A stretch of DNA of 64,000 nucleotides from Mobula hypostoma (lineage: Eukaryota), in the NCBI RefSeq assembly GCF_963921235.1, contig NW_026948140.1, positions 558,001-622,000 of the forward strand, given 5' to 3'. A model generated the notes under the pieces. That model was not told the DNA's origin and did not search any database. It saw only the letters and a list, made by a program, of their open reading frames with translations. How positions within the stretch are numbered: the first letter of the stretch is position 1; each line of letters begins with the position of its first letter. Made by a program: the position numbers and the translations under genes. Below, in pieces: positions 34,000 to 64,000 of the stretch.

Positions 34000-34305
34000 C
34001 ATCCAGAACGAGGGGTCCCAGTTTGAGGATAGAGGGGAAGCCTTTTAGGACCTAGATTAGGAAAAACTTCTTCACATAGAGAGTGGTGAATCTGTGGAAT
34101 TCTCTGCCACAGGAAACAGTTGAGGCCAGTTCATTGGCTATATTTAAGAGGGAGTTAGATACGGCCCTTGTGGCTCAAGGCATCAGGGGGTATGGAGGGA
34201 AGGCTGGTACAGGGTTCAGAGTTGGATGATCAGCAATGATCATACTGAATGGCGGTGCAGGCTCGAAGGGCCAAATGGCCTACTGCTGCACCTATTTTCT
34301 ATGTT
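34000..34305 (+). mobile_element. CR1 3' end
   Basis: RKNFFT-RVVNLWNSLP coding followed by the tail ending cctattttctatg. Copies at 41404-41705 (-), 44205-44525 (+) and 51040-51355 (-). Confidence 0.88.
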
Positions 34306-38335: not shown

Positions 38336-39575
38336 TCAAACACGAGGAATTCTGCAGATGCTGGAAATTCAAGCTACACACATCAAAATTGCTGGTGAAT
38401 GCAGCAGGCCAGGCGGCATCTCTAGGAAGAGGTACAGTCGACGTTTCGAGCCGAGCCCCTTCATCAGGACAAACTGAAGGAAGAGCTAGTAAGAGATTTG
38501 AAGCAACACTCACAACACGCTGGAGGAACTCAGCAGGTCAGCATCCGTGGAAAAGATCAGTCGATGTTTCAGGCCGGGACACTTCGTCAGGACTGGGTTT
38601 GAAAGTGGGAGGGGGAGAGGGAAATCCAAAATGATAGGACAAGACAGGAGGGGGAGGGATGAAGCCAAGAGCTGGACAGGTGATTGGCAAAAGTGATATG
38701 AGAGGATCATGGGACAGGAGGCCCAGGGAGAAGGAGAAGGGGGAGGGGCGAAAAACCCCGAGGATGGGCAAGGGGTATAATCAGAGGGACAGAGGGAGAA
38801 AAGAGAGAGAGAGAGAAAGAATGTGTGTATATAAACAAATAATGGATGAGGTACGAGGGGGAGGTGGGGCTTTAGCGGAAGTTAGAGAAGTCAATGTTCA
38901 TGCCATCAGGTTGGAGGCTACCCAGACGGAATATAAGGTGTTGTTCCTCCAACCTGACTGTGGCTTCATCTTTACAGTAGAGGATGCCGTGAACAGACAT
39001 ATCAGAATGGGAATAGGACGGGGAATTAAAATGTGTGGCCACTGGGAGATCCTGCTTTCTCTGGCGGACAGAGCGTAGCTGTTCAGCAAAATGATCTCCC
39101 AGTCTGCGTCAGGTCTCACCAATATATAGAAGGCCACATCAGGAGCACCGGATGCAGTATATCACCCCAGCCGGCTCAAAGGTGAAGTGTCACCTCAGCT
39201 GGAAGGACTGTCTGGGGCCCTGAATCACCTGTCCAGCTCTTGGCTCCATCCCTCCCCCTCCCATCTTCTCCTATCATTTTGGATCTCCCCCTCCCCCACA
39301 CACTTTCAAACCCAGTCCTGACGAAGCGTTCTGGCCCGAAACGTCAACCGATCTTTTCCACGGATGCTGCCCGACCTGCTGAGTTCCTCCAGCGTGTTGT
39401 GAGTGTTGCTTCAAATCTCTTACTAGCTCTTCCTTCAGTTTGTCCTGATGAAGGGGCTTGGCTCGAAACGTTGACTGTACCTCTTCCTAGAGATGCCGCC
39501 TGGCCTGCTGCGTTCACCAGCAATTTTGATGTGTGTAGCTTGAATTTCCAGCATCTGCAGAATTCCTCGTGTTTG
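38336..39575. mobile_element. Short PLE-A copy with inverted tail
   Basis: Minus-strand GIY-YIG and tail at 38336-39225. 39226-39575 is the inverted copy of 38336-38683. Confidence 0.88.
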
Positions 39576-41403
39576 AGTTATTGCCTATGTGTTTTGGGGT
39601 TGTTTTTTTTTAGGGACTGTGTGCTGTGATCTTGGGGTGCGGCAATAGCTCACTGAGGAGTGTTGTGGGGGGAAGGACTGGGGGTAGAGTTAAGTGTTGG
39701 GGGTGGAGGATTCACGGCAAAGGGAGGTAGGGCGGGGTGGCAACTGGCAAAATGGTTGTGTTATTGCTTATGGATAGTGTTTTTGGGGTTGGGGTTTTTT
39801 TTAGGGACTGGGTGCTGTGATCTGTGGGTTGTGCAGTAACTGGGAGAGTCTCCAGTTTCGCCTCTCCTGTGGCTTCCTCAAGGGAATGTGCGGTAAAAAC
39901 TCAGGTGCTCTCTGTTTAAAGGTAGGTTTCTGTGTCACCCCCCCCCCCGTGGAATGTTCCACCGTACCCACCCCACCCATTCTCGGCACTGCTTGACCAA
40001 ACCCGTTTGACCAGTTCTGCTGCAGCCCCTGACTTTTGCTGGGATACCGGCCTGCCTTGTTTGTTTAAACTGTTAAAGGTAAATTGTCCGCTAATCTCAC
40101 TTCTCCAGTGGGCAAAGTATCCTTCTTGTGTTTGTGGATCTCGTACTGGAGATGCAGTATCACTTCACCCTGCCACTTTGTTTTTGGCCCACATTGTCAT
40201 CATCTCAGTCCGCGACTTCCCTTTTCCAGGATCTTCCTCCTCGTTAACCTCCGTTCTGGAGTTTCTGTTAAAATGGTGGAGTTATTGTTTATGGATAGTG
40301 TTTTGGAGTTGGAGGTCCCTTTTTGGGACTGGGTACAGTGAACTGGGGGTTGTGCAGTAGCCCATTGAGGTGTATTATTGCGGGGGAGTGCCCGGGGGTA
40401 GAGTTAAGTAATGGGGGTGGAGGATTCATGTCGAAGGGAGGGGTGTGGGGTGGCAACCCGCAAAATGGTTATGTTATTGCTTATGGATAGTGTTTTGGGG
40501 TTGGGGTTTTTTTAGGGATGGGTGCTGTGATCTGGGGGTTTTAAAGGTGAATGTGAGAGTCTCCAATTTCACCTCTCCTGTGGCTTCCTCAAGGGAATGT
40601 GCTGTAAAAACTCAGGTGCTCTCTAGTCCTGACAAAGGGTCCCAGCCCGAAACGTCAACTGTACCTCTTCTTATAGATGCTGCCTGGCCTGCTGCATTCA
40701 CCAGCAATTTATATTTGTGTTGCTCTGTTTAAACATGGGTTTCTGTGTCTCCCCTCTCTGGAATGATCCACCCTATCCCCACCCCACCCATTCTCGGCAT
40801 TGCTTTACCAAACCTGTTTGTCCAGTTCCGCTGCAGCCCCTGACTGTTACTGGGATACAGGCCTGCCTTGTGTGTTTAAAATGTTAAAGGTAAATGGTCC
40901 GCTAATCTCACTTTCCTATTTATTTCCTGATCTTCTCCATTCCTTGAGCCCCTAATTTTTCATTTCTATTCCTTTAATATCTAGCTAGAGTTAAGATTAG
41001 ATTTCATCCTATTTCTCCGTTTACGATTACATTTTTAATTGTGACTTTAGTGTTCAACCTGTTGGTTCATTGCTCTGTGGGTATAAAGTGGTAGCAGCTT
41101 GTGGTTAATTGATGTTCGGGTTGGGGCCTAACCACAGTAAACTGTGCTCGTTTTCCTAGCTTCTTGGATTTACTTTGGCTTTTGAGGACCATGATGATGA
41201 GGGATGTGTCACTTCTGGTTAGGATACGAGTATGCAGTCAGTGGGGAAAATATCCCTCTAGTGTTTGTGGATCTCGTACTGGAGATGCAGTATCACTTCA
41301 CCCTGCCAACTTGCTTTTGGCCCACATTCTCATCATCTCAGTTACCGACTTGTCTTTATTTGGCCTTCCTCCTCGTTAACTGCCATTCTGGAGTTTAAGT
41401 TAA
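39576..41403 (-). repeat. PLE-B derived array, inverted orientation
   Basis: Reverse complement of the blocks at 37635-38335 and 44526-46550. Confidence 0.88.
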
Positions 41404-41724
41404 AACATAGAAAATAGGTGCAGGAGTAGGCCATTCGGCCCTTCGAGCCGGCACCGCCATTCAGTATGATCATGGCTGATCATCCAACTCTGAACCCTGT
41501 ACCAGCCTTCCCTCCATACCCCCTGATCCCTTTAGCCACAAGGGTCATATCTAACTCCCTCTAAAATATAGCCAATGAACTGGCCTCAACTGTTTCCTGT
41601 GGCAGAGAATTCCACAGATTCACCACTCTCTGTGTGAAGAAGTTTTTCCTAATCTCGGTCCTAAAAGGCTTCCCCTATATCCTCAAACTGTGACCCCTCA
41701 TTCTGGATGGTGGAGTTATTGCCT

Positions 41725-44185: not shown

Positions 44186-44525
44186 GGCAATAACTCCACC
44201 ATCCAGAACGAGGGGTCACAGTACCAGAACGAGGGCTCATAGTTTGAGGATAAAGGGGAAGCCTTTTAGGACCGAGATTAGGAAAAACTTCTTCACACAG
44301 AGAGTGGTGAATCTGTGGAATTCTCTGCCACAGGAAACAGTTGAGGCCAGTTCATTGGCTATATTTTAGAGGGAGTTAGATATGACCCTTGTGGCTAAAG
44401 GGATCAGGGGGTATGGAGGGAAGGCTGGTACTGGGTTCAGAATTGGATGATCAGCCATGATCATACTGAATGGCGGTGCCACCTCGAAGGGCCGAATAGC
44501 CTACTGCTGCACCTATTTTCTATGT

Positions 44526-47500
44526 TTTAACTTAAACTCCAGAATGGCAGTTAACGAGGAGGAAGGCCAAATAAAGACAAGTCGGTAACTGAGATGATGA
44601 GAATGTGGGCCAAAAGCAAATTGGCAGGGTGAAGTGATACTGCATCTCCAGTACGAGATCCACAAAGACTAGATGGATATTTTGCCCACTGGAGAAGTGA
44701 GATTAGCAGGCAATTTACCTTTAACAGTTTAAACAAACAAGGCAGCCCGATTTCCCAGCAAAAGTCTCCAGTACGAGATCCACAAACACTGGAGGGATAT
44801 TTTCCCCACTGACTGCATACTCGTATCCTAGCCAGAAGTGACACGTCTCTCATCATCCTGGTCCTCAAAAGCCAAAGTAAATCCAAGAAGCTAGGAAAAC
44901 GAGCACAGTTTACTGTGGTTAGGCCCCAACCCGAACATCAATTAACCACAAGCTGCTACCACTTTATACCCACAGAGCAGTGAACCAACAGGTTGAACAC
45001 TAAAGTCACAATTAAAAATGTAATCGTAAATGGAGAAATAGGATGAAATCTAATTTTAACTCTAGCTAGATATTAAAGGAATAGAAATGAAAAATTAGGG
45101 GCTCAAGGAATGGAGAAGATCAGGAAATAAATAGGAAAGTGAGATTAGCGGACCATTTACCTTTAACATTTTAAACACACAAGGCAGGCCTGTATCCCAG
45201 CAACAGTCAGGGACTGCAGCGGAACTGGACAAACAGGTTTGGTAAAGCAATGCCGAGAATGGGTGAGGAGGGTAGGGTGGAACATTCCAGAGGGGGGAGA
45301 CAGACAAACCCATGTTTAACAGAGAGCATCTGAGTTTTTCCAGCACATTCCCTTGAGGAAGCCACAGGAGTCGCGAAACTGGAGACTCTCCCAGTCACTG
45401 CACAACCCCCAGATCACAGCACCCAGTCCCTAAAAATACCGCCAACTCCAGAACACTATCCATAAGCAATAACTCCACCATTTTAACTTAAACTCCAGAA
45501 TGGAGGTCAACAAGGAGGAAGATGCCTTTAAAGGCAAGTCGGGGACTGAGATGTGGGCCAAAAATAAAGTAGCAGGGTGAAGTGATACTGCATCTCCAGT
45601 ACGAGATCCACAAAGACTAGATGGACATTTTGCCCACTGGAGAAGTGAGATTAGCAGGCAATTTACCTTTAACAGTTTAAACAAACAAGGCAGCCCGATT
45701 TTCAGCAAAAGTCAGGGGCTGCTGCGGAACTGGACAAACAGGTTTGGTAAAGCAATGTCGAGAATGGGTGGGGTGGGGGATATGGTGGAACATTCCAGAG
45801 AGGGGAGACACAGAAACCCACGTTTAAACAGAGCAACACAAATATAAATTGTTGGTGAATGCAGAAGGCCAGGCAGCATCTATAAGATGAGGTACAGTTG
45901 ACGTTTCAGGCTGAGACCCTTCGTCAGGACTAGAGAGCACCTGAGTTTAAACAGAGAGCACCTGAGTTTTTATAGCACATTCCCTTGAGGAAGCCACAGG
46001 AGAGGCAAAATTGGAGACTCTCGCAGTCTCTTTTAAAACCCCCAGATCACAGCACTCAGTCCCTAAAAAAATCCCAACCCCAAAACACTATCCATAAGCA
46101 ATAAATCCACCATTTTGCAGGTTGCCACCCCACACCCCTCCCTTCGCCGTGAATCCTCCACCCCCATTACTTAACTCTACCCCTGGGCACTCCCCCCCAT
46201 AACACACCTCAATGGGCTACTGCACAACCCCCAGATCACTGTACCCAGTCCTAAAAAAGGACCTCCAACTCCAAAACACTATCCATAAACAATAACTCCA
46301 CCATTTTAACTTAAACTCCAGAATGGAGGTTAATGAGGAGGAAGATCCTGGTAAAGGGAAGTCGGGAACTGAGATGATGACAACGTGGGCCAAAAACAAA
46401 GTGGTAGGGTGCAGTGATACTGCATCTTCAGTACGAGATCCACAAGAGGAATATTTTGCCCACTGGAGAAGTGAGATTAGCAGACAATTTACCTTTAACG
46501 GTTTAAACACACAAGGCAGGCCGGTATCCCAGCAACAGTCAGGGACTGCAGCGGAACTCGACAAACAGGTTTGGTAAAGCAATGCTGAGAATGTGTGTGT
46601 GTGCGGGGCGGGACAGGGTGGAACATTCCAGAGGGGGGAGACAGACAAACTCACGTTTAAACAGAGAGCACCTGAGTTTTTACCGCACATTCCCTTGAGG
46701 AAGCCACTGGAGAGGCAGAACTGGAGACTCTCCCAGTCACTCAACAACACCCAGTCCCTAAAAAAACCCCAACCCCAAAAACACTATCCATAAGCAATAA
46801 CTCCATCATTTTGTCAGTTGCCACCCCACCTCCCTTTGCCATGAATCCTCCACCCCCATTACTTAACTCTATCCCCAAACCTTCCCCCCAATAACACCCC
46901 TCAATAAGCTACTGTACAAACCCCAGATCAGAGCACCCAGTCCCTGAAAAAAATCCCAACCCCAAAATATTATCCATAAGCAATAACTCCACCATTTTAA
47001 CTTAAACTCCAGAACGAGGGTGAACGAGGAGGAAGCTCCTAATAAAGGCAAGCTGGGGACCGAGATGATGACAACGTGGGCCAAAAACAAAGTGGCAGGG
47101 TGAAGTGGTACTGCATCTCCAGTACGAGATCCACAAACACTGGAGGGATATTTTGCACACTGACCACATACTCGCATCCTAACCAGAAGTGACACATCTC
47201 TCATCATCCTGGTCCTCAAAAGCCAAAGTAAATCCAAGAAGCTAAGAAAACTAGCACAGACTACTGCGATTAGGCCCCAACCTGAACATAAATTAACCAC
47301 ATGCATCTACCACTTTATAGCCACAGAGCAGTGAACCAACAAGTTAAACACTAAAGTCACAATTAAACAATGTAATCCTGAAAGGAGAAATAGGATGAAG
47401 TCTAATCTTAACTCTAACTAGATATTAAAGGAATACAAATGAAAAAAATCGTGGCTGAAGGAATGGAGAAGGTTACTAAACAGGGAGTACCTGAGATTTT

Positions 47501-48108
47501 ACAGCACATTCCCTTGAGGAAGCCACTGGAGATGCGAAAATGGAGACTCTCCCAGTCACTGCACAACCCCCAGATCACAGCAGTCAGTCCCTAAAAAAAC
47601 TCCCAACTATCCATAAGCAATAACTCCACCATTTTAACTTAAACACCAGAATGGAGGTTAACGAGGAGGAAGATCCTAATAAAGGCAAGTCGGGGACTGA
47701 GATGATGACAATGTGGGCCAAAAACAAAGTGGCAGGATGAAGTGATACTGCATCTCCAGTACGAGATCCACAAACACTAGATGGATATTTTGCCCACTAG
47801 TGAAGTGAGATTAGCGGACAATTTACCTCTAACAATTTAAACAACCAAGGCAGGCCTGTATCCCAGCAACAGTCAGGGGCTGCAGCGGAACTCGACAAAC
47901 AGGTTTGGTAAAGCAATGATGAGAATGTGTTGTGGGGGTAGGGTGGAACATTCCAGAGGGGGGAGACACACAAACCCATGTTTAAACAGAGAACCCCTGA
48001 GTTTTTACAGCATATTCCCTTGAAGAAGCCACAGGAGAGGCGAAACTGGAGATGCTCCCAGTCACTGCACAACCCCCAGATCACAGCACTCAGTCCCTAA
48101 AAAAACTT
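44526..48108 (+). repeat. PLE-B derived mosaic array with HHRs
   Basis: HHR remnants at ~45347, 45978, 46688, 47508 and 48014. Partly duplicates 34306-36354. Confidence 0.88.
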
Positions 48109-49604: not shown

Positions 49605-49967
49605 TCATTTTTAAATCTTTTTATTAGTTATTATTGAAAATTGACAACAAAAATACATTAAAATAATCAAGTCAATATATCAATATGTATAATAAGAGTC
49701 AAACTATTAACCAAGCTAAACAGTATATCAGTAATAAATAAAAAAAACAAAATGTTAAAGCTATTTTTTTGAAAAAAGAATGAAAAAAGAATCCCTACTA
49801 ATTAAAACAACAACCCCCAACCAGCTAACAAACAAAAAAAAACAAGAAAAAAAAACCTATTTGGAGAATAAACCCAGAGCTATACGCTATACAAGCCTCT
49901 ATAAAAAAAAGACATCAATCTGCCAACCAAATCCATTTACCCAAGAATCAGAAAGGAACCATCTTAA
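49605..49967 (-). mobile_element. Probable L1 3' UTR
   Basis: T-rich on the minus strand, ending aataaaaagatttaaaaa as at 36365. Confidence 0.6.
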
Positions 49968-50990
49968 TAGAGGGAGTGCATTCAGATTGGAGGATTGTGA
50001 CTAGTGGTGTCCCACAAGGATCTGTTCTGGGACCTCTACTTTTTGTGATTTTTGTTAACGACCTGGATGTGGGGGTAGAAAGGTGGGTTGGCAAGTTTGC
50101 AGATGACACAAAGGTTGGTGGTGTTGTAGATAGTGTAGAGGATTGTCAAAGATTGCAGAGAAACATTGATAGGATGCAGAAGTGGGCTGCGAATTGGCAG
50201 ATGGAGTTCAATCTGGAGAAGTGTGAGGTGGTACACTTTGGAAGAACAAACTCCAAGGCAGGCTACAAAGTAAATGGCAGGATACTTGGTAGTGTGGAGG
50301 AGCAGAGGGATCTGGGGGTACACGTCCACAGATCCCTGAAAGTTCCCTCACAGGTAGATAGAGTAGTTAAGAAAGCTTATGAGGTGTTAGCTTTCATAAG
50401 TCGAGGGATAGAGTTTAAGAGTCGTGAGGTAATGATGCAGCTCTATAAAACTCTGGTTAGGCCCCACTGGGAGTACTGTGTCCAGTTCTGGTTGCCTCGC
50501 TATAGGAAGGATGTGGAAGTATTGGAAAGGGTACAGAGGAGATTTACCAGGATGCTGCCTGGTTTAGAGAGTATGCATTATGATCAGAGATTAAGGGAGC
50601 TAGGGCTTTACTCTTTGGAGAGAAGGAGGATGAGAGGAGACATGATAGAGGTGTACAAGATAATAAGAGGAATAGATAGAGTGGACAGCCAGCACCTCTT
50701 CCCCAGGGCACCACTGCTCAATACAAGAGGACATGGCTTTAAGGTAATGGGTGAGAAGTTCAAGGGGGATATTAGAGGAAGGTTTTTCACTCAGAGTGGT
50801 TTGTGCGTGGAATGCACTGCCTGAGTCAGTGGTGGAGGCAGACACACTTGTGAAGTTTAAGAGACTACTAGACAGGTATATGGAGGAATTTAAGGTGGGG
50901 GATTATATGGGAGGCAGGGTTTGAGGGTCAGAACAACATTGTGGGCCGAAGTGCCTGTATTGTGCTGTACTATTCTATGTTCTACGTTAA
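49968..50990 (+). mobile_element. CR1 3' part, same subfamily as 18931-19950
   Basis: ORF 49976-50824 (GVPQGSVLGP, FADD) and tail tattctatgttct. Confidence 0.93.
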
Positions 50991-51039
50991 TCAACTCAAA
51001 TCAAATGATAGTAGCAGGCAAAAAAGCCCCACCTCTTCT

Positions 51040-54000
51040 CATAGAAACATAGAAACATAGAAACATAGAAAATAGGTGCAGGAGTAGGCCATTCGGCCCT
51101 TCGAGCCTGCACCGCCATTTATTATGATCATGGCTGATCATCCAACTCAGAACCCAGCCTTCCCTCCATACCCCCTGACCCCTGTAGCCACAAGGGCCAT
51201 ATCTAACTTCCTTTTAAACATAGCTAATGAACTGGCCTCAACAGTTTGCTGTGGCAGAGAATTCCACAGATTCACCACTCTCTGTGTGAAGAAGTTTTTC
51301 CTAACCTCGGTCCTAAAAGGCTTCCCCTCTATCCTCAAACTGTGACCCCTCGTTCTAGACCTCCCCAACATCGGGAACAATCTTCCTGCATCTAGCCTGT
51401 CCAATCCCTTTAGGATCTTATACGTTTCAATCAGATCCCCCCTCAATCTTCTATCTTCTAAGTCAAAGTCAAATCTCAAAAATTGACTTCTCAAAGTCAA
51501 ATCGAGGATCAAAAGTTCGACTTCTGATTTTTTCACTATTGTATCAAAGTGGGAGCAGAAGCGCTCTTTCCATTTTAATAAAATAGCCCTTCTAGCCAAT
51601 AATGTTACAAATGCAATTACATATTGGTCTGATATAGAAATACCATGAATATATTGAGGAATTATACCTAACAAAACTGTCAATTTATTAGGTTGTAAAT
51701 TAATTTTTAAAACTTTAGAAATTCTAGAGAAAATAGATTTCCAAAACTGTTTCAGTACAGAACACCAAGAAACCATAGAAAAACTACAGCACAGAAACAG
51801 GCCTTTTGGCCCTTCTTGGCTGTGCCGAACCATTTTCTGCCTAGTCCCACTGACCTGCACACAGACCATATCCCTCCATACACCTCCCATCCATGTATCT
51901 GTCCAATTTATTCTTAAATGTTAAAAAAGAAACCGCATTTACCACCTCGTCTGGCAGCTCATTCCATACTCCCACCACTCTCTGTGTGAAGAAGCCCCCC
52001 CTAATGTTCCCTTTAAACTTTTCTCCCCTCACCTTTAACCCATGTCCTCTGGTTTTTTTCTCCCCTTGCCTCAGTGGAAAAAGCCTGCTTGCATTCACTC
52101 TATACCCATCATAATTTTATATACCTCTATCAAATCTCCCCTCATTCTTCTACACTCCAGGGAATAAAGTCCTAACCTATTCAACCTTTCTCTGTAACTG
52201 AGTTTCTCAAGTCCCGGCAACATCCTTGTAAACCTTCTCTGCACTCTTTCAATCTTATTTATATCCTTCCTGTAATTTGGTGACCAAAACTGAACACAAT
52301 ACTCCAGATTCGGCCTCACCAATGCCTTATACAACCTCATCATAACACTCCAGCTCTTATACTCAATACTTTGATTAATTAGGACCTATGTACTAAAAGC
52401 TCTCTTTATGACCCTATCTACCTGTGACGCCACTTTTAGGGAATTTTGTATCTGTATTCCCAGATCCCTCTGTTCTACTGCACTCCTCAGTGCCTTACCA
52501 TTAACCCTGTGTATTCTACCTTGGTTTGTCCTTCCAATGTGCAATACCTCACACTTGTCTGTATTAAACTCCATCTGCCATTTTTCAGCCCATTTTTCCA
52601 GCTGGTCCAAGTCCCTCTGCAGGCTCTGAAAACCTTCCTCAGTGTCTACTGCACCTCCAATCTTTGTATCATCAGCAAATTTGCTGATCCAATTTACCAC
52701 ATTACCATCCAGATCATTGATATAGATGACAAATAACAATGGACCCAGCACTGATCCCTGTGGCACACCACTAGTCACAGGCCTCCACTCGGAGAAGCAA
52801 TTCTCTACTACCACTCTTTGGCTTCTTCCATTGAGCCAATGTCTAATCCAATTTACCACCTCTCCATGTATACCTAGCGACTGAATTTTCCTAACTAACC
52901 TCCCATGCGGGACCTTGTCAAAGGCCTTACTGAAGTCCATGTAGACAATATCCACTGCCTTCCCTTCATCCATTTTCCTGGTAACCTCCTCGAAAAACTC
53001 CAATAGATTGGTCAAACATGACCTACCATGCACAAAGCCATGTTGACTCTCCCTAATAAGTCCCTGTCTATCCAAATGCTTGTAGGTTCTGTCTCTTAGT
53101 ACTCCCTCCAATAACTTACCTACGACCGACGTTAAACTTACCGGCCTATAATTTCCCAGATTACTTTTCGATCCTTTTTTAAACAACGGAACAACATGAG
53201 CCACTCTCCAATTCTCCGGCACCTCACCTGTAGACAGCGACATTTTTGAATATTTCTGCCAGGGCCCCTGCAATTTCAACACTAGTCTCCTTCAAGGTCC
53301 AAGGGAACACCCTGTCAGATCCCGGGGATTTATCCACTTTAATTTTCCTCAAGACAGCAAGCACCTCCGCCTTTTCATGACCAAAACATATGTGTCAATG
53401 TAGCTATCTCAGTTTTACATCTATCACACTGACTATTAACATTTGGAAATGTTTTAGACAGTCTCTCCTTTGTCAAATAATAACGATGTACAATTTTAAA
53501 TTAAATCAAAGAATGACTGGCGCAAATCGAAGAAGAGTTAACCAACTTCAAAATTTGCAACCAATCCTCTGTTATCAAGGTCATGATAAGTCCTCTTTCC
53601 CTAATGCAAAGATCATTGCTGGAGTCCAGCAATCTCCTCCCTCACTTCCCACAGTAGCCTGGGGTACATCCGATCCGGTCCCAGTGACTTATCCAACTTG
53701 ATGCTTTCCAAAAGCTCCAGCACATCCTCTTTCTTAATATCTATATTCTCAAGGTTTTTCAGTCTACTGCAAGTCATCCCTACAATCGCCAAGATCCTTT
53801 TCCATAGTGAATACTGAAGCAAAGTATTCATGAAGTACCTCCACGATTTCCTCCGGTTCCATACACACATTTCAATTGTCACACTTGATTGGTTCTATTC
53901 TCTTACGTCTTATCCTCTTGCTCTTCACATACTAGTAGAATGCCTTGGGGTTTTTCTTAATCCTGTCGGCCAAGGCATTCCCATGGCCCCTTCTGGCTCT

Positions 54001-54105: not shown

Positions 54106-54678
54106 TTTCGTCGAGCACCTCCGCTCTATCTGTCATAACAGACAGGATCTCCCAGTAGCCACCCACCAATTCTGCTTCCCATTCCCATTCAGATATGTCC
54201 ATACATGGCCTCCTGTACTGCCATGATGAGGCTAAACTCAGATTGGAGGAGCAACACCTCATATACCGTCTAGGTAGTCTCCAGCCCTTTGGTATGAACA
54301 TAGAATTCTCCAACTTCCGGTAATTCCCTCCCCCTCCCTTCCCCTATCCCTATTTCACTCTGCCCCCTCCCCCAGCTGCCTATCACCTCCCTCATGGTTC
54401 CGCTTCCTTCTACGACCCATTGTGTTTCCCCTATTCCTTCTTCACCTTTCCTGCCTATCACCTCTCTGCTCCCCCTCCCCCACCCCTTTATCTTTCCCCT
54501 TACTGGTCTTTCACCTGGAACCTACCAGCCTTCTCCTTCCCACCCTCCCTCCACCTTCTTTATAGGGCCTCTGCCCCTTCCCTCTTCAGTCCTGACGAAG
54601 GGTTCCAGCCCAAAATGTTGACCGATCTTTTCCACGGATGCTGCCCGACCTGCTGAGTTCCTCCAGTATGTTGTGAGT
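54106..54678 (+). mobile_element. PLE-A 3' fragment with HHR
   Basis: Reverse complement of 10880-11430. HHR at ~54587-54623. Confidence 0.85.
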
Positions 54679-55401
54679 TGTTTATTCCAAAGGAAAGGAT
54701 AACCTTCTTAGTTTCCAGTTGTGGTTCTAACTTTGTCAGGATAGCAGTGGCATGGGTGAATTTGGCTCCCGGAAAGCTGTCCAACTGAACATCCTTATTA
54801 GGGCATCTTTTGATCCTGTAAATGTTCGAGTCCCCTATAACTAGTATAGGTTTAAGGGGCCTTAGTTCCCAAGTTACATTTTTCTGTTTAGAGTGAGGAT
54901 GCCTCGTTATTTGACCCTCCTGGTTGTTGCAAATAGAGGTTACCTGTCCTCTTGTTTCTCCCATGTCCTCCGACTCTCAGGCTGTGTGGTTCCCTGGGGT
55001 GGAAGACTTGCTCGGTCTTCGTGTACTGGCTCCCCTTGTCTGTATGCCCATCCGCACTGGTGTGGGGTGGGGTGCTGATTCCTCAGAGTCTAGGGTCGGA
55101 GAGGCCGTGGGGGCGGCGGGCTGGGGCTCCCCTGCTCCTAGGTTGGATTGCGTCTTCTCCGAGGGGCTCATGGGTGGGGAGGGGCTCACCTGGCGTCTTC
55201 TCTGTTCCTGTGATTGGGGCAGTGGGGCCGCATCGGCGTCGAGTGGGTTAACTAGCTCCGGCGCCCTCCCGTGGACGGCGCCGGAACTCCCACTGCACGT
55301 GCTGTTCTCAGGACCTGTTGGTCTGAGACAGTCCCGCAGCAGAACTACCGGACTCAAGTTCGTTTTACTCGTCGCCGACGGACGGGGTACAGCTTGAGCG
55401 G
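54679..55401 (-). mobile_element. PLE-B ORF1 internal fragment (linker plus SGNH N-half)
   Basis: Matches 59510-60304 apart from an internal indel. Confidence 0.92.
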
Positions 55402-55430
55402 TTAGGGTTAGGGTTAGGGTTAGGGTTAGG
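55402..55430 (+). repeat. Interstitial vertebrate telomeric repeat (TTAGGG)4-TTAGG at a PLE-B junction
   Basis: Direct read: ttagggttagggttagggttagggttagg. Confidence 0.95.
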
Positions 55431-55869
55431 ATGCGGGCAGTGGGCAAAATATCCTTCTAGTGTTTGTGGATCTCGTACTGGAGATGCAGTATCACTTTAC
55501 CCTGCCACTTTGTTTTTTGCCCACGTCAGCATCATCTCGCTCCCCACCTTTCCTTTACTGGGATCTTCCTCCTCTTCAACCTTCATTCTGGAGTTTAAGT
55601 TACAATAGTGGAGATATTGGCTATGGATAGTGTTTCGGATTTGGGGTCTTTTTTATAGGGATTGTGTGCTGTGAACTGGGGGTTGTGCGGTAGCTAATTG
55701 ACGGGTGTTGTGGGGAGGGACATGCCCGGGGGTAGAGTTAGGTAATGGAGGTTGAGGATTCACGGTGAAGGGAGGTGAGGTGGGGGTGTCCCCTGCAGTT
55801 GGGGGGAGGGCTGAAATAGGAGCCTAGCTGCTGGTGATATTGGGCGAGTTTGGCTCCTTGATGGGGTAA

Positions 55870-56492
55870 GGGCTTGGGTTTATGGGGGTGTGTAGCAGGG
55901 TTGGAGATGTTAGATTTAGGGGTAGGGCAAAGGACTATTATATAAGCCCTTTAGTGTGGTGTGATTTGGGTTATTTGGGGTGCTGTCCGGTTCAGTTGGC
56001 GTGCGCAGTCCCTTGGAAATTAGGATTAGGGTTAGTGTCAGGGCTGGGGTTAGGATGCGAGTATGCGGGCAGTGGGAATTTGGCCCCCTGCTGGGGTGAG
56101 GGTTTGGGTTTATGGGGGTGTGTAGCACGGTTGGAGGTGTTAGGTTTAGTGGTATGGCAAAGGACTATTATTGAAGCCCTTTAGTGTGGAGTGGTTTGGG
56201 TTATTTGGGGTGCTGTCCAGTTTAGTTGGGGTGCACAGTCCATTGGAAATTAGGGTTAGGATTAGTGTCAGGGCTGGGGTTAGGATGCAAGTATGCGGGC
56301 AGTGGGAATTTGGCCCCTTGCTGGGGTGAGGGTTTGGGTTTATGGGGGTGTGTAGCACGGTTGGAGGTGTTAGGTTTAGTGGTAGGGCAAAGGACTATTA
56401 TGTAAGCCCTTTAGTGTGGTGTGGTTTGGGTTATTTGGGGTGCTGTCTGGTTTAGTTGGGGTGCCCGGTCCATTGGAAATTAGGGTTAGGGT
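55870..56492. repeat. 230-bp tandem repeat (~2.7 units) within the PLE-B 3' UTR
   Basis: tatgggggtgtgtagca at 55881, 56111 and 56341. Single-copy in the 62271-63457 UTR. Confidence 0.9.
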
Positions 56493-57035
56493 TTAGTTGG
56501 GGTGTGTGGTCCTCCGGATGTTAGGATTAGGTTGGGGGGGTAGGGTTGAGGGGGGCCCGCTGGGCAGTGGGAGGTATAACTGGTGATGTGGGGTGAGTTT
56601 GCCCCTCTGGCGAGAAGAGGATCTGTGTTTATGGGGTGTGAAGATATCAGGTTTCAGGGCAGGGTCATGTGCTGGGGATGTATTCTTCCCCATGGGGGAA
56701 GCGGGGAAGTTGGGGCAAGTGCTGTGTCTGGATTAAACCGGTCGTTATGTGTCTGTTCTTCCTAGTGGTTATCTCCTGTAGCGTTATAATTCCTAGTTTT
56801 ACTCCTCTCTACTTGGGGAATTAGGTTCCGTTCTGGGGCCTAGTTGTTAGGCTCTATTTCCAAAGTAAGACGAACCTTTCCTATTTAATGGTCCCCTGTC
56901 TTAATTTGTTTCAGGGTGGGTGACTGAAGGGGATCTTCCCCTTCTTCCCTACTCTAATTTTCTCAATTTTTTTAAAATTACAGGGTGCAGTGTTGGCCCT
57001 TCGGTGAGTACATTTTATGTTGCTGGCCTGGTTTT

Positions 57036-59282
57036 TTAGCCCTCGTTCAGGCCGTTTGGGGAATGCGTCTGTAGTCTTTCAATCCATCTCCTCTCTGTTC
57101 TTTTTCTTTGGAGGTTTGACCAGTTTATGTTGGTTTCCAGGCCCAGGATTGCTAAGGAGTACATTCCATGCTCCAGGAAGTGCCTACTAACTGGTCTGTT
57201 TTGGTTTCCTCTTGTGATATTACTGAGGTGTCCTGTGAGTGTGGTTCTCAGGCTGTTGCCTGTCTCCCCTATGTATATGATATGGCATTGTTTTGCATAT
57301 ACTACATTCCGTTGTTCACAAGTTATCCCCTGCTCTATCTCAGCCCACTTTCCTGTAGCTCTGTTGTGTATGCTTTTTGAAATTCTGATGTATATGCACG
57401 CCCTGCAGTTTCCCACCTCGCAGTTTGGCGCTGTTCGTACTTTGGTACTGACTAGTATGTCTTTTAAGTTTCTACCCCTTTTGAAGGCTGAAACTATGGT
57501 GTATTGTCCCAGTGTCCCCCCTTCCTCCTTTAGATTTTCAAAGTGTGTTTTGACTGTCTTGTGGATATTCACTGCCATCCCACTGTATCCTGTTATCAAG
57601 GGTAGTTTCTGTGTTGTGTTGTCCCGTGGTCGGGGATTTGTGATACTTTTTAAAAAGTCAGATTTGATGTGTCTGAGTCTCCGTCTGCTGTAGCCCCTGT
57701 GTCTAAGTGCAGAGAAGAGGATAAGAGTGGCTTGGTGGAAGTCCTCTGCCCTGGTGCAAATGTGATGAAACCGGGTCAGCTGTCCTTTGACAATGCCTCT
57801 GAAGGTGTGTTTGGGATGGTGGCTCCCGGTGTGTAGGAGGGTGTGTGTGTCTGTGGTTTTAAAGAATACTTTGGTGGCTAGTTTCTGGCTGCCATTTTTT
57901 GGTGCTTGTTTAAATACCGTAGTGTCCAGGAAGTCAATTTTCTCCCTATCTGTTGCGGCCTTAACCTTAATGGATGGATGATGAGTGTTTAGGATTTGAA
58001 TAAATTCCTCTAATTCTACCTCTGAGTGTGTCCACACTCCCCAGATGTCATCTAGGTATCTATAGAGACACATGGGTTTCTTGGGGCACTTTGGATAAAC
58101 AGTTTCCTCCCATTTTGCCATGTGTATATTGGCATAGGCTGGAGCAAACTTCTTTCCCATCGCTGTGCCCTTGACTTGTAAGTAGAATTCATTATTGAAT
58201 TCAAAGTCATTTTTAGTTAGGCTGAGGGGAAGGAGTTCTAACAAGGCCTCGTCTGGTCTCTCTAGCTGAGGGTTCTCCCGAAGGATATCCCTCACTGCCT
58301 CTATACCCCTGTCCGTTTCTACATTGGTGTACAGGCTTTCAATGTCCATGGTGAAGAGTATGGCCTCAGGGGGCACTGACATGGAATTGACTATCCCGAC
58401 AAAGTGGTACGTGTCCTTGATGTAGCTGGAGTGTTTCTGCGATAGTGGGTTAAGGAAGGCATCAATGTATTCTGCTATCCTGTATGACTCACTGCCGCAG
58501 TCCGACACGATGGGTCTGCCGGGTGGTATTTCTCCCGGAACAGTCCATGAGTCTGGGTTCTTGTGTATTTTGGGGAGGATATAGAACTTTCTTGCTTGTG
58601 GCTGTATCCCTGTCAGGTACTCCACCTGCTTCTTCCCGAGGTATCTAGTTCTTTCTAGTTCTCGCAGAATGTTCCTGATTTCTGTGTGTGTTTCCCAGTA
58701 TATGGGTTCCTTTAGTTTAGTGTAGTGCTCCATGTTATTTAATTGCCTGCGTGCCTCAAATAGATATTGCTGTTTATCCATGATCACTATGCTGCTCCCT
58801 TTACCTGCTGGTTTGATAACAATATCCATATTTTCTCTCAACTCCTTCCGGGCTGCTCTCTCCTTCCTAGTTAGATTGGGTTTATCCTGTACCTTTGTCT
58901 CCCTCTCCATTATCTCATCCAGTGTGCTCTCAAATGGCAGGACCGCTTCTGACCTGTACCTCCTCTTGGACATCCAGTCTGAGGGTGGGGTGAAAGGGGT
59001 CTTTCTATGTTCTGTCTCCCCAAAAAAGTCAACCAGTACCACTCTCCTGTAGAACTTATCCATGCCCCCCTCAGTCTGCTCCTTATGGAGTTCTGGAGTC
59101 AGTACAAAAGTGAGGCCCCTGTTCAGAACTTTTTGCTGGGTTTCTGTAGGGATGAATGTATGGGAGAGGTTCACGACTGTCTCTCCCAGTCGTGGACCCT
59201 GCCTCTCTCGGCTTTGTCTCCACTCTAGTTTAAAGACTGCATCCACCTCTTGACTATGGTCAGGGATGTGTTCTCTGTCCAA
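57036..59282 (-). CDS. Penelope-like reverse transcriptase + GIY-YIG endonuclease (748-codon open frame, non-ATG 5' end)
   Basis: VVNLS..LNRGLTF, FYILPKIHK, GRPIVS, TMDIESLYTN, QVKGTAMG, RYLDD, CEVGNCRAC linker, NVVYA..YIGETG and NGLNE. Confidence 0.95.
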   Translation of the reverse strand: MDREHIPDHSQEVDAVFKLEWRQSRERQGPRLGETVVNLSHTFIPTETQQKVLNRGLTFVLTPELHKEQTEGGMDKFYRRVVLVDFFGETEHRKTPFTPPSDWMSKRRYRSEAVLPFESTLDEIMERETKVQDKPNLTRKERAARKELRENMDIVIKPAGKGSSIVIMDKQQYLFEARRQLNNMEHYTKLKEPIYWETHTEIRNILRELERTRYLGKKQVEYLTGIQPQARKFYILPKIHKNPDSWTVPGEIPPGRPIVSDCGSESYRIAEYIDAFLNPLSQKHSSYIKDTYHFVGIVNSMSVPPEAILFTMDIESLYTNVETDRGIEAVRDILRENPQLERPDEALLELLPLSLTKNDFEFNNEFYLQVKGTAMGKKFAPAYANIHMAKWEETVYPKCPKKPMCLYRYLDDIWGVWTHSEVELEEFIQILNTHHPSIKVKAATDREKIDFLDTTVFKQAPKNGSQKLATKVFFKTTDTHTLLHTGSHHPKHTFRGIVKGQLTRFHHICTRAEDFHQATLILFSALRHRGYSRRRLRHIKSDFLKSITNPRPRDNTTQKLPLITGYSGMAVNIHKTVKTHFENLKEEGGTLGQYTIVSAFKRGRNLKDILVSTKVRTAPNCEVGNCRACIYIRISKSIHNRATGKWAEIEQGITCEQRNVVYAKQCHIIYIGETGNSLRTTLTGHLSNITRGNQNRPVSRHFLEHGMYSLAILGLETNINWSNLQRKRTERRWIERLQTHSPNGLNEG

Positions 59283-59797
59283 TGGATGTGGTCTGTGTCT
59301 ACCTTAAACTGCCTCGTCGGGATTGCAGGGATATAATTCTTAGTTTTAATAACCTCATTTAGTTGGCCCAGGGTTGCTTGTTCTGCCTCTGTCAAACAGT
59401 GGCTAAAGTTCAGCTCTGGCACCCGGATACTGGCATTGGGAAATTTTATATGGGCCATTCTTAATAATTGCTGAAGCTGTTTAGTCGCTGTTGCTGGTTG
59501 ATGTGACCTATTGTTTATTCCAAAGGAAAGGATAACCTTCTTAGTTTCCAGTTGTGGTTCTAGCTTTGTCAGGATAGCAGTGGCATGGGTGAATTTGGCT
59601 CGCTGAAAGCTGTCCAATTGAACATCCTTATTAGGGCATCTTTTGATCCTGTAAATGTTCGAGTCCCCTATAACTAGTATAGGTTTAAGGGGCCTTAGTT
59701 CCCAAGTTACATTTTTCTGTTTAGAGTGAGGATGCCTGGTTATTTGACCCTCCTGGTTGTTGCAAATAGAGGTTACCTGTCCTCTTGTTTGTCCCAT
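59225..59797 (-). CDS. SGNH/GDSL-type esterase domain (C-terminal part of PLE-B ORF1)
   Basis: LVIGDSN (block I), SF(P/Q)(G/R)A (II), LSFGINN (III) and DHIH (V, DxxH). Confidence 0.85.
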   Translation of the reverse strand: MGQTRGQVTSICNNQEGQITRHPHSKQKNVTWELRPLKPILVIGDSNIYRIKRCPNKDVQLDSFQRAKFTHATAILTKLEPQLETKKVILSFGINNRSHQPATATKQLQQLLRMAHIKFPNASIRVPELNFSHCLTEAEQATLGQLNEVIKTKNYIPAIPTRQFKVDTDHIHWTENTSLTIVKRWMQSLN

Positions 59798-59809
59798 GTC
59801 CTCCGACTC

Positions 59810-60988
59810 TCAGGCTGTGTGGTTCCCTGGAGTGGAAGACTTGCTCGGTCTTCGTGTACTGGCTCCCCTTGTCTGTGTGCCCATCCGCACTGGTGTGGGG
59901 TGGGGTGCTGATCCCTCGGAGTCTTGAGTCGGGGAGGCCATGGGGGCGGCGGGCTGGGGCTCCCCTGCTCCTAGGTTGGATTGCATCTTCTCCGAGGGGC
60001 TCATGGGTGGGGAGGGGCTCACCTGGCGTCTTCTCTGTTCCTGTAACTGGGGCAGTGGGGCCGCATCGGCGTCGAGTGGGTTAACTTGCTCCAGCGCCCT
60101 TCCGTGCACAGTGCCGGAACTCCCACTGTAAGTGTCGGCGCTGGGAGGACTAACTAGCTCCAGCGCCCTCTCGTTGACGGTGCCGGAACTCCCACTACAC
60201 GTGTTGTTCTCAGGACCTGTTGGTCTGAGACAGTCCCGCAGCACAATTACCGGACTCAAGTTCGCTTTACTCGTCGCCGATGGACGGGGTGCAGCCTAAG
60301 CGGTCTTTTTCCGGGGCTCGGGTGTGATACGGGTCCGGTCACGTTTGACCCAGAAGCCGTCCCTGGAGGTGGAGGGTCTGTTCCCCTCTTCCTCTTGGGA
60401 TGCGGTTTCCATTGTCCGTGGGTTCATTGTGGCCGCATCCGAATTGTGGGGCCCCTCGTGGGCCCGGTCTGCCGCGGCCTGCCGTTCTGGCACAGGTCTT
60501 GAGACCAGATCAAAAATATGCTTTTGGACGTCCTCCAATTTGATTTGAAATTTTTCCTTTAAATTTCGTTTGTTCCAGATTGCGGCTTTGCTGATTGCTT
60601 CTGGTAAGCGATCAGTCAGATCCGATTCACTAAATTTTAGTTCCAATTCTTGCAGGCTGTTTTGGTAATGATCAATGAAAATGTGACGTGTTTGTTTACC
60701 CCAAGCGTCCGCATTGGCAGCAATTTTGCGAAGCGTTTCTTGGGAGTGGTTCCCCGGCTTTGTGAATTTGGTCAGTCTGTATGCCTGGGTGGTGATCCCC
60801 TTCGGTGGCCTGATCATTTGTTCCAAAACTCTTAGGTGGTGCAGAGTCTGGATTATTTTATATATTAATCTAACCGTGGTGGAAAACGAATCCCTGGGAA
60901 ACCCGGGGTTTCTGCCGGTACCACGGTAGTCTGATGCGCCATGTGCTGGCAGGCCCCCGGTCCTCTCTCTCGAATTTCTCATCCACAT
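59810..60988 (-). CDS. PLE-B ORF1 N-terminal helical domain plus Pro/Ser-rich linker (interrupted by TAG at 60296-60298)
   Basis: ORFs 60296-60988 and 59810-60259 are in frame. Sister fragments carry CAG (62256-62258) and CAA (55394-55396) at the TAG position. Confidence 0.75.
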
Positions 60989-61131
60989 CGTTAAAGTAAG
61001 ACAATAATCAGAAAACTACAGATGAAGTCCACTTAATTAATGTCCTTAGCGCTTGTTCTTCGTTTTGGGTTCCGTGATTTCGACTCCTGCGAATTGCCTT
61101 TAACGAAGCGTATTGCCTTCCATAAAGCGTA

Positions 61132-61190
61132 TTTCCCGACTGGGAGAGTCACCAGTTTCGCCTGTCTCTTTGGCTTCCTCATGGGGAATT
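61132..61190 (-). ncRNA. Type I hammerhead ribozyme motif of PLE-B
   Basis: Minus strand: uuccc-c-AUGAGGA-A-GCC(aaagagaca)GGC-GAAA-CUGG(ugacucuc)CCAG-UC|gggaa. Stems I, II and III all pair and there is a GUC cleavage triplet. The core deviates from CUGANGA. Confidence 0.75.
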
Positions 61191-61747
61191 CTGTAAAGAC
61201 TGAGGTGGTCTTCCTTTAAAATGTTCCACTCCACTCCCCGCAGCCCCCCCCACCCAAAACCGCCCACCTCCCACCTCTGTATTGTTTAACCAAACATGTT
61301 TGTCCATTCCTGCTGCAGCACCTGGCTGTTGCCGGCCCGCCCTATTTGTTAAGACTCTTAAAGGTAAATTATCCACTAATCGCGCTGCTCCTTTATATTA
61401 TTTGACCCTCCCCATTCTTTTCGCCCCTAATTTTTTATTTCTATTCCTTTAATACCTAGTTAGAGTTGAGATTAAATTGCATCCTATTTCTCCTTTTAGA
61501 ATTACGTTGTTTAATTGTGACTTAAGTGTTCAAACTGTGAATTTACTGTTCTGTGGGTAAAACGTGGCGGAAGCTTGTGCCAAATGTATGTTGGGGTTGG
61601 GGTTTAAACTCAGTAGTCTGTGCCAGTTTTCCTAGCTTCTTCGATTTACTTTGGCTTTTGAGGACCAGGATGATGAGAGACGTGTCACTTCTGGTTAGGA
61701 TGCGAGTATGCGGGCAGTGGGCAAAATATCCCTGTAGTGTTTGTGGA

Positions 61748-62263
61748 CTTGCTCGGTTCTCGTGTGCTGGCTCCCCTTGTCTGTGTGCCCATCCGCACTG
61801 GTGTGGGGTGGGGTGCTGATCCCTCAGAGTCTTGGGTCGGGGAGGCCATGGGGGCGGCGGGCTGGGGCTCCCCTGCTCCTAGGTTGGATTGCGTCTTCTC
61901 CGAGCGGCTCATGGGTGGGGAGGGGCTCACCTGGCGTCTTCTCTGTTCCTGTGGCTGGGGCAGTGGGGACACATCGGCGTCGAGTGGACGGGGCCGGAAC
62001 TCCCACTGCGGGAACTCCCTCTCGTGGACGGTGGCGGAACTCCCACTGCGCGTGTCTGCGCTGGGAGGACTAACTAGCTCCAGCGCCCTCTCGTGGACGG
62101 TGCCGGAACTCCCACTGCGGGAACTCCCTCTCGTGGACGGTGCCGGAACTCCCACTGCACGTGCTGTTCTCAGGACCTGTTGGTCTGAGACAGTCCCGCA
62201 GCACAATTACCGGACTCAAGTTCGTTTTACTCGTCGCCGATGGACGGGGTGCAGCCTGAGCGG
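61748..62263 (-). mobile_element. PLE-B ORF1 linker fragment with internal micro-duplications
   Basis: Matches 59836-60304 and ends at the same AGCGGT point as the 54679-55401 fragment. Confidence 0.9.
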
Positions 62264-62270
62264 TTAGGGG

Positions 62271-64000
62271 TTAGGATGCGAGTATGCGGGCAGTAGGCAA
62301 AATATCCCTCTAGTGTTTGTGGATCTCGTACTGGAGATGCAGTATCACTTTACCCTGCCACTTTGTTTTTTGCCCACGTCATTATCATCTCGGTCCCCAA
62401 CTTTCCTTTACTGGGATCTTCCTCCTCTTCAACCTCCATTCTGGAATTTAAGTTACAATAGTGGAGTTATTGTCTATGGATAGTGTTTTGTATTTTGGGT
62501 CTCCTTTATAGGGACTGTGTGCTGTGATCTGGGGGTTGTGCGGTAGCTAATTGAGGGGTGTTGTGGGGAGGGACATGCCCGGGGGTAGAGTTAGGTAATG
62601 GGGGTTGAGGATTCACGGCGAAGGGAGGTGGGGTGGGGTGGCAATTGGCATTGCGGGGATGGGTGTGTCCCCTGCAGTAGCCGGGAGGGCTGAAATGGGA
62701 GCCTAGCTACTGTTGATATTGGGCGAGTTTGGCCCCTTGATGGGGTAAGGGCTTGGGTTTATGGGGGTGTGTAGCAGGGTTGGAGATATTAGGTTTAGGG
62801 GTAGGGTAATGCACTGTTATATAAGCCCTTTAGTGTGGTGTGGTTTGGGTTCTTTGGGGTGCTGTCCGGTTTAGTTGGGTTGCGCGATCCCTTGGAAATT
62901 AGGGTTATGGTTTAGTTGGGGTGTGTGGTCCTCCGGATGTTAGGATTAGGTTGAGGGGGTTAGGGTTGAGGGGGGCCCGCTGGGCGGCGGGAGGTATAAC
63001 TGGTGATGTGGGGTGAGTTTGCCCCTCTGGCGAGAAGAGGTTTTGTGTTTATGGGGTGTGAAGATGTTAGGTTTCAGGGCAGGGTCATGTGCTGGGGATG
63101 TATTCTTCCACATAGGGGAAGCTGGGAAGTTGGGGCAAGTGCTGTGTCTGGATTAAACCGGTCGTTACGCGTCTGTTCTTCCTAGTGGTTAACTCCTGTA
63201 GCGTTCTAATTTCTAGTTTTACTCCTCTCTACTTGGGGAATTAGGTTCCGTTCTGGGGCCCAGTTGTTAGGCTCTATTTCCAAAGTAAGACGAACCTTTC
63301 CTATTTAATGGTCCCCTGTCTTAATTTGTTTCAGGGTGGGTGACTGAAGGGGATCTTCCCCTTGTTCCCTACTCTAATTTTCTCAATTTTTAAAAAAATT
63401 ACGGGGTGTAGTGTTGGCCCTTCGGTGAGTACATTTTATGTTGCTGGCCTGGTTTTTTAGGCCTCGTTTAGGCCGTTTGGGGAATGCGTCTGTCGTCTTT
63501 CAATCCATCTCCTCTCTGCTCTTTTTCTTTGGAGGTTTGACCAGTTTATGTTGGTTTCCAGGCCCAGGATTGCTAAGGAGTACATTCCATGCTCCAGGAA
63601 GTGCCTACTAACTGGTTTGTTTTGGTTTCCTCCTGTGATATTACTGAGGTGTCCTGTGAGTCTTGTTCTCAGGCTGTTGCCTGTCTCCCCTATGTATATG
63701 ATATGGCATTGTTTACACTGGATTGCATATACTACATTCTTTTGTTCGCAAGTTATCCTCTGCTCTATCTCAGCCCACTTCCCTGTAGCTCTGTTGCGTA
63801 TGCTTTTTGAAATTCTGATGTATATGCACGCCCTGCAGTTTCCCACCTCGCAGTTTGGCACTGTTCGTACTTTGGTACTGCTTGGTATGCCTTTTAAGTA
63901 TCTACGCCTTTTGAAGGCTGAAACTATGGTGTATTGTCCCAGTGTCCCCCCCCTTCCTCCTTTAGATTTTCAAAGTGTGTTTTGACTGTCTTGTGGATAT
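62271..64000 (-). mobile_element. Next tandem PLE-B copy: 3' UTR and GIY-YIG end, runs off the window
   Basis: ORF 63457-63861 (NVVYAIQCKQCHIIYIGETG..NGLNE). The UTR matches 55426-57036 and is preceded by TTAGGGG-TTAGG at 62264-62275. Confidence 0.93.

Follow-up and report, generated by a model that had tools for sequence, protein, structure and literature searches.

The 64,000-nucleotide window analysed here (Mobula hypostoma, RefSeq assembly GCF_963921235.1, contig NW_026948140.1, forward-strand positions 558,001 to 622,000) is vertebrate DNA rich in repeats. On its minus strand, at 60988-57036, lies an element that is, judged by its domains and motifs, a Neptune-type Penelope-like retroelement with an endonuclease. 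We propose that a programmed −1 ribosomal frameshift of the Gag-Pol kind probably joins its first open reading frame (ORF1), which ends in an SGNH esterase, to a second (ORF2) encoding reverse transcriptase (RT) with an endonuclease (EN) of the GIY-YIG type. Two ORFs in a Gag-Pol-like layout are the best explanation of the element's organization. Most ribosomes would terminate at the UAG that closes ORF1, leaving free ORF1 protein (ORF1p) in excess, while a minority would slip one base back at a U UUA AAC heptamer to make an ORF1-RT-EN fusion of ~1300 residues. How often ribosomes slip would then determine how much structural protein is made per enzyme. The initial annotation of this DNA described ORF1 and was silent on both the −1 overlap with the RT frame and the heptamer at 59234-59228.

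All features of the element and its nearby copies given below lie on the minus strand. ORF1 ends in TCT TTA AAC TAG, and one base back the ORF2 frame reads GTC TTT AAA CTA GAG. The heptamer (59228..59234) thus stands in the ORF1 frame immediately 5′ of the stop. ORF2 occupies the −1 frame from 59234 to 57036, with 732 codons counted from the heptamer that comprise the RT, a CX4CxxC linker and the GIY-YIG domain. Its first methionine is codon 58 from the heptamer, past the VVNLS and LNRGL motifs. Viruses use slippery sites of these types: U UUA AAC in coronaviruses, G UUA AAC in arteriviruses, and GGA-type sites in other cases.

Further junctions came from host-derived contigs in prokaryote assemblies, where eight loci (L002-L009) yielded four junctions; L006-L009 hold an RT only, without a junction. 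These Penelope-like elements sit within GTDB assemblies assigned to Brevinema, Epulonipiscioides, Enterovibrio, Streptomyces and others; they are probably of animal host origin and likely represent contamination. The tandem unit of L003, 5441 bp long, is intact and has N-terminal domain, esterase, heptamer and RT-EN. The window and L003 share U UUA AAC, and the other heptamers are G UUA AAU (L002), A AAU UUC (L004) and G GAU UUA (L005). An in-frame heptamer lies 2-6 codons 5′ of the ORF1 stop at all five junctions, compared with 3 of 1843 other ORF1 codons; under a strict heptamer rule the counts are three of five junctions and 2 of 1843 background codons. Past the junction the −1 frame stays open for 598-761 codons in all five, and the 0 and +1 frames for no more than 65.

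The position of potential start codons bears on a rival reading, in which each of the two ORFs gives a protein of its own. Human L1 ORF2 is translated by termination-reinitiation or from a non-AUG start, and a LINE-like arrangement (LINE, long interspersed nuclear element) could be imagined here, since the ORF1 stop falls right where the conserved RT region begins. The first methionine past the ORF1 stop is found at codons 56, 365, 182, 392 and 32 in the five junctions, and four of the five ORF2s lack an AUG ahead of their first conserved motifs; in L003 the first methionine comes only at codon 371 from the heptamer. Reinitiation at an AUG does not sit well with these four. It also gives no reason to expect a constant −1 register, or X XXY YYZ heptamers that come in four sequences and share one place.

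Protein homologues extend the comparison beyond the five junctions. A DxxHW anchor is readable in 149 ORF1 tails and missing from 2. Relative to this anchor, 111 of the 149 carry Leu-Asn (LN) at a fixed place, the rest having mostly LK, VN, GN or VK, and ORF1 ends 0-7 residues past that place in 141 of the 149. On the ORF2 side we used the best 120 of 1715 RT homologues, 415-1322 residues long, a set outside which any esterase-bearing fusion of more than 1322 residues would fall. Many of their called starts fall where the −1 frame runs over ORF1's His-Trp codons, 4 or 16 residues ahead of the site, which agrees with the 12-codon spacing of ORF1's two tryptophans. Among 47 homologues selected by a start at these His-Trp codons, the site reads Lys in 42 and [FVIL]K in 40, with ~0.23 expected from Leu codon use. 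The reinitiation reading does not predict [FVIL]K at these starts; in its favor, none of the best 120 RT homologues, within their 415-1322 residues, contains an esterase. The RT starts of P0240, P0246 and P0159 read FF or CK near the junction, which suggests other heptamers there (a U-run, or an ORF1 ending in Val-Lys), the sequence varying and the place being kept.

Several points weigh against the frameshift and the layout built on it. The relaxed heptamer rule was fixed after sight of the data, and two of the five heptamers depend on it. The rule for selecting RT starts was likewise written after the data had been seen, and it excluded 73 of the 120 homologues, which start elsewhere or have no anchor. 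The homologues are also related to one another (median identity 51%) and are not independent trials. With a rule set after the fact and with related sequences, a binomial tail gives too strong a picture. In L005 an AUG in frame with ORF2 lies two codons beyond the heptamer, as reinitiation would have it. In a further locus, L001, the N-terminal domain is present and the frame stops without an esterase.

The downstream RNA adds to this list. A predicted stem-loop 6 nt past the heptamer (59163..59221) is a candidate frameshift stimulator, with folding z-scores of −3.86, −2.26 and −2.23 for three choices of folding window, and in L003, too, a stem follows a 6-nt spacer. When the junctions are compared, the z-score is −3.7 for our sequence; those of L002 (+0.9), L003 (−0.65) and L005 (+0.38) are not significant, and the fold downstream of L004 reaches merely −2.6 kcal/mol. 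A common variant in related runs, 59178 T>G, breaks one pair of the hairpin. A stimulatory structure is plausible, as far as folding can tell, in the window and L003 and not in L002, L004 or L005. That three of five junctions have no strong stimulator counts in favor of separate translation of ORF2. Weighing this with the register, the heptamers and the scarcity of AUG codons, we regard termination-reinitiation or a non-AUG start as unlikely, and a programmed −1 frameshift as the probable route into ORF2.

ORF2 might also be reached at the RNA level, through splicing or slippage. Introns are described in Penelope-like elements (PMC8557442), and L001 shows, by eye, an apparent intron in its leader. 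The heptamers appear too short for the runs on which polymerases slip. Contigs cross the junction without a gap in two related runs, X10 (record 8, 59038-59314) and X5 (record 16, 59083-59243). The X5 contig, RNA by guess, speaks weakly against splicing, and no joint at the junction occurs among those listed. We hold both routes to be very improbable. The whole stretch L001:1805-3004 contains a hammerhead, the apparent leader intron and the N-terminal domain, with a possible splice donor at its end.

Finally, the offset could be a decay mutation in what was once a single ORF1-RT frame, or ORF1 could be a chance neighbor of the RT. The canonical elements with an endonuclease have been described as having a single ORF (PMC8557442), and this copy is visibly damaged, with two stops, a lost esterase glycine and a deletion in the endonuclease. 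The same −1 offset is, however, found at four unrelated loci, including intact L003, and among the rows listed for four runs there is no indel at the junction. An ORF1 profile built on three sequences was run against representatives at 50% identity: 1813 proteins had E≤0.001, and for 549 E was ≤1e-30. The best 150 comprised 149 new proteins, of which 145 have both N-terminal domain and esterase and 4 the esterase alone; they stop at the esterase, and none contains an RT. Together with the esterase lying immediately 5′ of the RT in L002, L003, L004 and L005, these proteins bear out the earlier proposal that ORF1 is a part of the element. The decay or chance-neighbor reading is largely refuted and has a very small residual probability. 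The frameshift stands as the preferred account of a conserved junction. The copy in the window, with its two stops, lost glycine and endonuclease deletion, is decayed and dead.

As first annotated, three consecutive ORFs share one frame, which runs for 588 codons including the stop from ATG at 60988 to TAG at 59227-59225 (ORF1, 59225..60988). The TAG at codon 231 (60296..60298) is, as had been claimed, a private nonsense mutation: comparison of three window copies gives CAG in sister fragment A, a piece of the ORF1 linker at 61729..62264, and CAA in sister fragment B, a piece of ORF1 at 54678..55402 that ends after GINN. That this was the single nonsense codon does not hold, a second internal stop having been overlooked, TGA at codon 393 (59810..59812), which sister B also carries (54979-54977). 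In related runs 59812 A>G restores CGA, at depths of 170/220 in X1, 1099/1102 in X6 and 18/18 in X10 (X5 does not cover the site), and homologue P0004 has arginine there; the TGA is therefore also a nonsense mutation. The same observations rule out a programmed TGA, whether for selenocysteine or readthrough.

The family includes an intact 592-residue protein, P0003, 40% identical across 96% of the length. Of named proteins, the closest to ORF1 come from Hemitrygon (61% identity, 62% of the query covered) and Mobula (88% identity, 13% covered). Ten homologues were looked up; the 3 that are named are all teleost “uncharacterized” or “hypothetical” proteins. Between the two domains lies a low-complexity Pro/Ser/Thr linker (59744..60499), whose length across 145 homologues has a median of 228 residues and a range of 96-844. 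N-terminal extensions in 120 homologues are 17% arginine, a composition that fits RNA binding; ORF1 of the window has a short extension. Within the window, the per-site ratio of non-synonymous to synonymous differences (pN/pS) is 0.28 for the esterase part (3 synonymous, 3 non-synonymous), 0.39 for the linker, 0.51 for an RT copy and 0.97 for an endonuclease copy, counts too small to weigh.

The N-terminal domain (60500..60886, approximately residues 35-163) was delimited by alignment and fold prediction. Its AlphaFold model, from 134 sequences, has five helices, one of them 39 residues long, and a mean predicted local distance difference test score (pLDDT) of 95. Near-invariant positions are H50, H51, P62, P78, N92, W96, H107, Y108 and W138, together with a KP pair. 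The initial annotation had placed a helical domain of no recognized family, possibly undescribed, in residues 1-200. Its helical nature and lack of a family agree with our results; the span is smaller. No Pfam or NCBIfam model reached its cut-off, Foldseek gave no match at E≤0.001 against the PDB and viral libraries, and VIA-align over 48161 chains gave a best Z of 7.5 at a root mean square deviation of 6.0, a level that ordinary helical arrangements also reach. A word-based search with the domain of P0003 returned, among 39 candidates, the self-match alone. A homodimer prediction scored 0.00 with the alignment not used, which is evidence neither way. We read this as a real domain absent from the catalogues searched, a new fold not being proven. 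The 549 clusters at E≤1e-30 show it to be common, and it is therefore a common accessory domain for which no family model was found. Its clustered histidines could bind metal.

The C-terminal domain (59228..59743; delimited by alignment, predicted structure and Foldseek) is an SGNH esterase, as had been annotated, according to its model (pLDDT 96.5): Foldseek finds 138 PDB matches at E≤0.001, the best being PAF-acetylhydrolase at E 1.4e-7, with other SGNH enzymes among them. The catalytic residues are S443 (59662-59660), N492 (59515-59513), D566 (59293-59291) and H569 (59284-59282), and differences in the Ser and His codons among related runs are synonymous. The claim of intact GDS, GxN and DxxH motifs is right as far as those three go, and it passes over block II, which in this copy reads SFQRA (59605-59600, Pro-Gly to Gln-Arg) and has lost its glycine; sister B keeps SFPGA intact. 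Across 151 aligned homologues the block II proline is present in 151 and the glycine in 148, and all five catalytic positions are kept in 133, so that the lost glycine is, on this comparison, a defect of the copy and not of the family. Pfam Lipase_GDSL_2 is called in 23 of 68 members, with the window protein below the curated cut-off, and a profile run against PDB sequences gave a sole, weak match to 4C1B, the ZfL2-1 ORF1 esterase (E 0.0057). A single-sequence PDB search returned none, viral contigs held no relative of either the esterase or the RT, and no LINE esterase was found in the window.

ORF2 matches RVT_1 at E 5e-6, and GIY-YIG is matched at E 1e-7 in the upstream tandem copy, of which the endonuclease 3′ end is preserved before the window ends (63457..64000). 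Two relatives, P0155 and P0156, have both domains. The RT-endonuclease linker reads CEVGNCRAC (57422-57396), a CX4CxxC pattern. The pattern recurs in 3 of the best 120 RT homologues, in one case apparently as the endonuclease's own CxxC, and is thus a patchy feature. A CX2-5CxxC motif between RT and endonuclease is described for Neptune and shared with Nematis (PMC8557442, PMC3846280), and the combination of RT, linker and GIY-YIG points to one of these two. Near 57290 the endonuclease of the main copy has lost three residues, among them one cysteine of its CxxC; in the upstream copy the CxxC and two histidines of the CCHH motif, read by eye, are present. That copy, untranslated region (UTR) included, is 94% identical to 56306-57568. 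A 5′-truncated RT-EN of the same family, 90% identical, lies at 12522-13695 and is followed by a short leader/UTR unit.

The 5′ leader, or pseudo-long-terminal-repeat (pseudo-LTR) part, spans 60989..61747 and contains a type I hammerhead ribozyme motif (61131..61189; pattern search, stems by eye). The element thus shows the partial tandem (pseudo-LTR) arrangement with a hammerhead motif that is a Neptune feature. Sister fragment A is flanked by a 55-bp duplication (61693-61747 = 62269-62323). The predicted cut follows GUC at 61138, and at core position 3 the short copies have U in place of the A found in this motif; at the Rfam gathering score nothing in the window was matched, hammerheads included. 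Hammerheads are described in fish Neptunes (PMC4209133), and retrozymes as non-autonomous derivatives (bioRxiv 10.64898/2026.07.22.740005). Many short non-coding copies in the window repeat the leader segment 61138-61747. Retrozyme-like derivatives made of this leader and a 3′ UTR part (62269-62650), some in tandem, lie at 13702-14813, 23197-23871, 29987-31345, 34304-41405 and 44525-48103. Thirteen of these stop precisely at the predicted cut, at a GUC or GUU triplet; 11 of the thirteen join one UTR-derived word and 2 a shortened form. Such ends would be expected if hammerhead self-cleavage sets the 3′ end of the RNA, as we propose.

The 3′ UTR (55418..57035) has a 230-bp tandem repeat and CCTAAC-rich tracts, and that of the upstream copy (62270..63456) has many sense-strand CCTAAC and CCCTAA words. 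Sense-strand CCTAAC occurs 11 and 6 times in these two and 3, 8 and 7 times in L001:1-1270, L003:4111-5130 and L005:3301-4250, compared with an expectation of ~1 and no occurrence on the opposite strand of any of the five. They bring to mind the tracts complementary to telomeres in Athena and Coprina, elements that lack an endonuclease. Both UTRs of the window meet ORF1 at one internal point (~60304), at 62264-62270 and 55400-55430; the latter consists of five telomere-type CCCTAA repeats joining sister fragment B. The joins have telomere-like CCTAACC words and a short shared ACCGCT, which suggests that a single template switch lies behind both and that tandem copying came later.

What the proteins do is a matter of analogy. 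The N-terminal domain and a basic N-terminal tail may package the element's RNA and the esterase may tie the particle to membranes, a proposal to which we give even chances and which draws on analogy with the ORF1p of ZfL2-1 (PMC3905857). The frameshift fusion would then bring the RT into the ORF1p particle. The initial annotation called ORF1p LINE-like. This stands as a functional analogy, because independent capture of the LINE esterases is inferred in PMC5408684; in expression ORF1 appears Gag-like rather than LINE-like, because the −1 frameshift is probably the obligatory entry to the RT. More speculatively, and with doubt prevailing, a large group of fish Neptunes might make RT-EN solely as a frameshift fusion, with a particle built from the N-domain, a His-rich helical fold not described before, and an esterase as membrane anchor. 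If true, the class of retroelements nearest to telomerase would include some with a Gag-Pol-like way of forming particles.

The frameshift may be relevant in practice. First, if it is real, the RT starts of such elements are mis-annotated; a 2025 killifish study (PMC12602865) began a Neptune ORF2 at the first ATG and saw no match to the ORF upstream of it. Second, assays of Neptune retrotransposition would need ORF1 and the slip site. Finally, the N-terminal domain offers a direct test of RNA packaging by Penelope-like elements.

Other elements share the window. A second, distant Penelope-like family lies at 43548-42142 and 33340-31935, its RT 24-30% identical to that of ORF2. A different family of hammerhead motifs is found at 10967, 33894, 35080, 38466, 39319, 39446 and 41815. 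Fragments of CR1-type LINE reverse transcriptases, the family name given by eye, adjoin the element at 49829-53291. At 6194-6957 there is an 84-bp tandem repeat of 8.7 copies, which resembles a C2H2 zinc-finger array.

It is useful to set the element beside known systems. Retroviral and LTR-element Gag-Pol likewise has an X XXY YYZ site at the end of the first ORF, the enzyme ORF in −1 and a candidate stem ~6 nt on; in the present element neither a capsid nor a zinc knuckle nor a protease is visible, and folding gives no stimulator kept at all five junctions. Among Penelope-like elements, an ORF1 set apart by a frameshift with a pseudoknot has reportedly been described for the endonuclease-less Athena group. 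The Fig. 1 legend of PMC8557442 gives ORF1 of some Penelope-like elements, in a clade it leaves unnamed, as “separated by a frameshift with a pseudoknot”. These two-ORF elements share with ours an ORF1 5′ of the RT and a frameshift join; ours differs by its endonuclease and its ORF1-terminal esterase, and a pseudoknot is not demonstrated here.

The esterase leads to two further comparisons. ZfL2-1 of the CR1/L2 group and RTEX elements have an ORF1p with a C-terminal SGNH esterase and a conserved triad (4C1B, PMC3905857). In contrast, our element has a Penelope-type RT with GIY-YIG and a five-helix domain with invariant His and Trp that is not annotated as a coiled coil. LINE esterases stand apart from those of rotifer LTR elements and Athena (PMC5408684). 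Esterases in some Penelope-like elements, which the initial annotation mentioned, are in print for Neptunes: Neptune1_Ren has one at S383-S538 (PMC3905857 supplement), as have fish and mollusc Neptunes (PMC5408684). Like ours, the esterase-bearing Neptunes combine a Penelope-type RT, a C-terminal GIY-YIG, a Cys-rich linker and an SGNH domain late in a long upstream protein. The comparison is by description only, and the descriptions consulted name neither an N-terminal domain nor a frameshift for Neptune1_Ren or the fish and mollusc elements; the coiled coil of Neptune1_Ren is given as “n.d.” (PMC3905857).

The leader fits the hammerheads of Penelope pseudo-LTRs and the non-LTR retrozymes, sharing a bulged base 5′ of helix II and short tandem non-coding derivatives; as a difference, the short copies in the window have their end at the cut and are missing stem I's 3′ strand. 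In the literature searched, of which coverage was partial so that an earlier description is possible, neither a slippery site nor the N-terminal domain is described for Neptunes. Overall, the esterase-bearing ORF1 of Neptunes is largely known, and this element's contribution lies in the −1 junction, which is strongly conserved, and in the N-terminal domain, which is absent from the catalogues searched.

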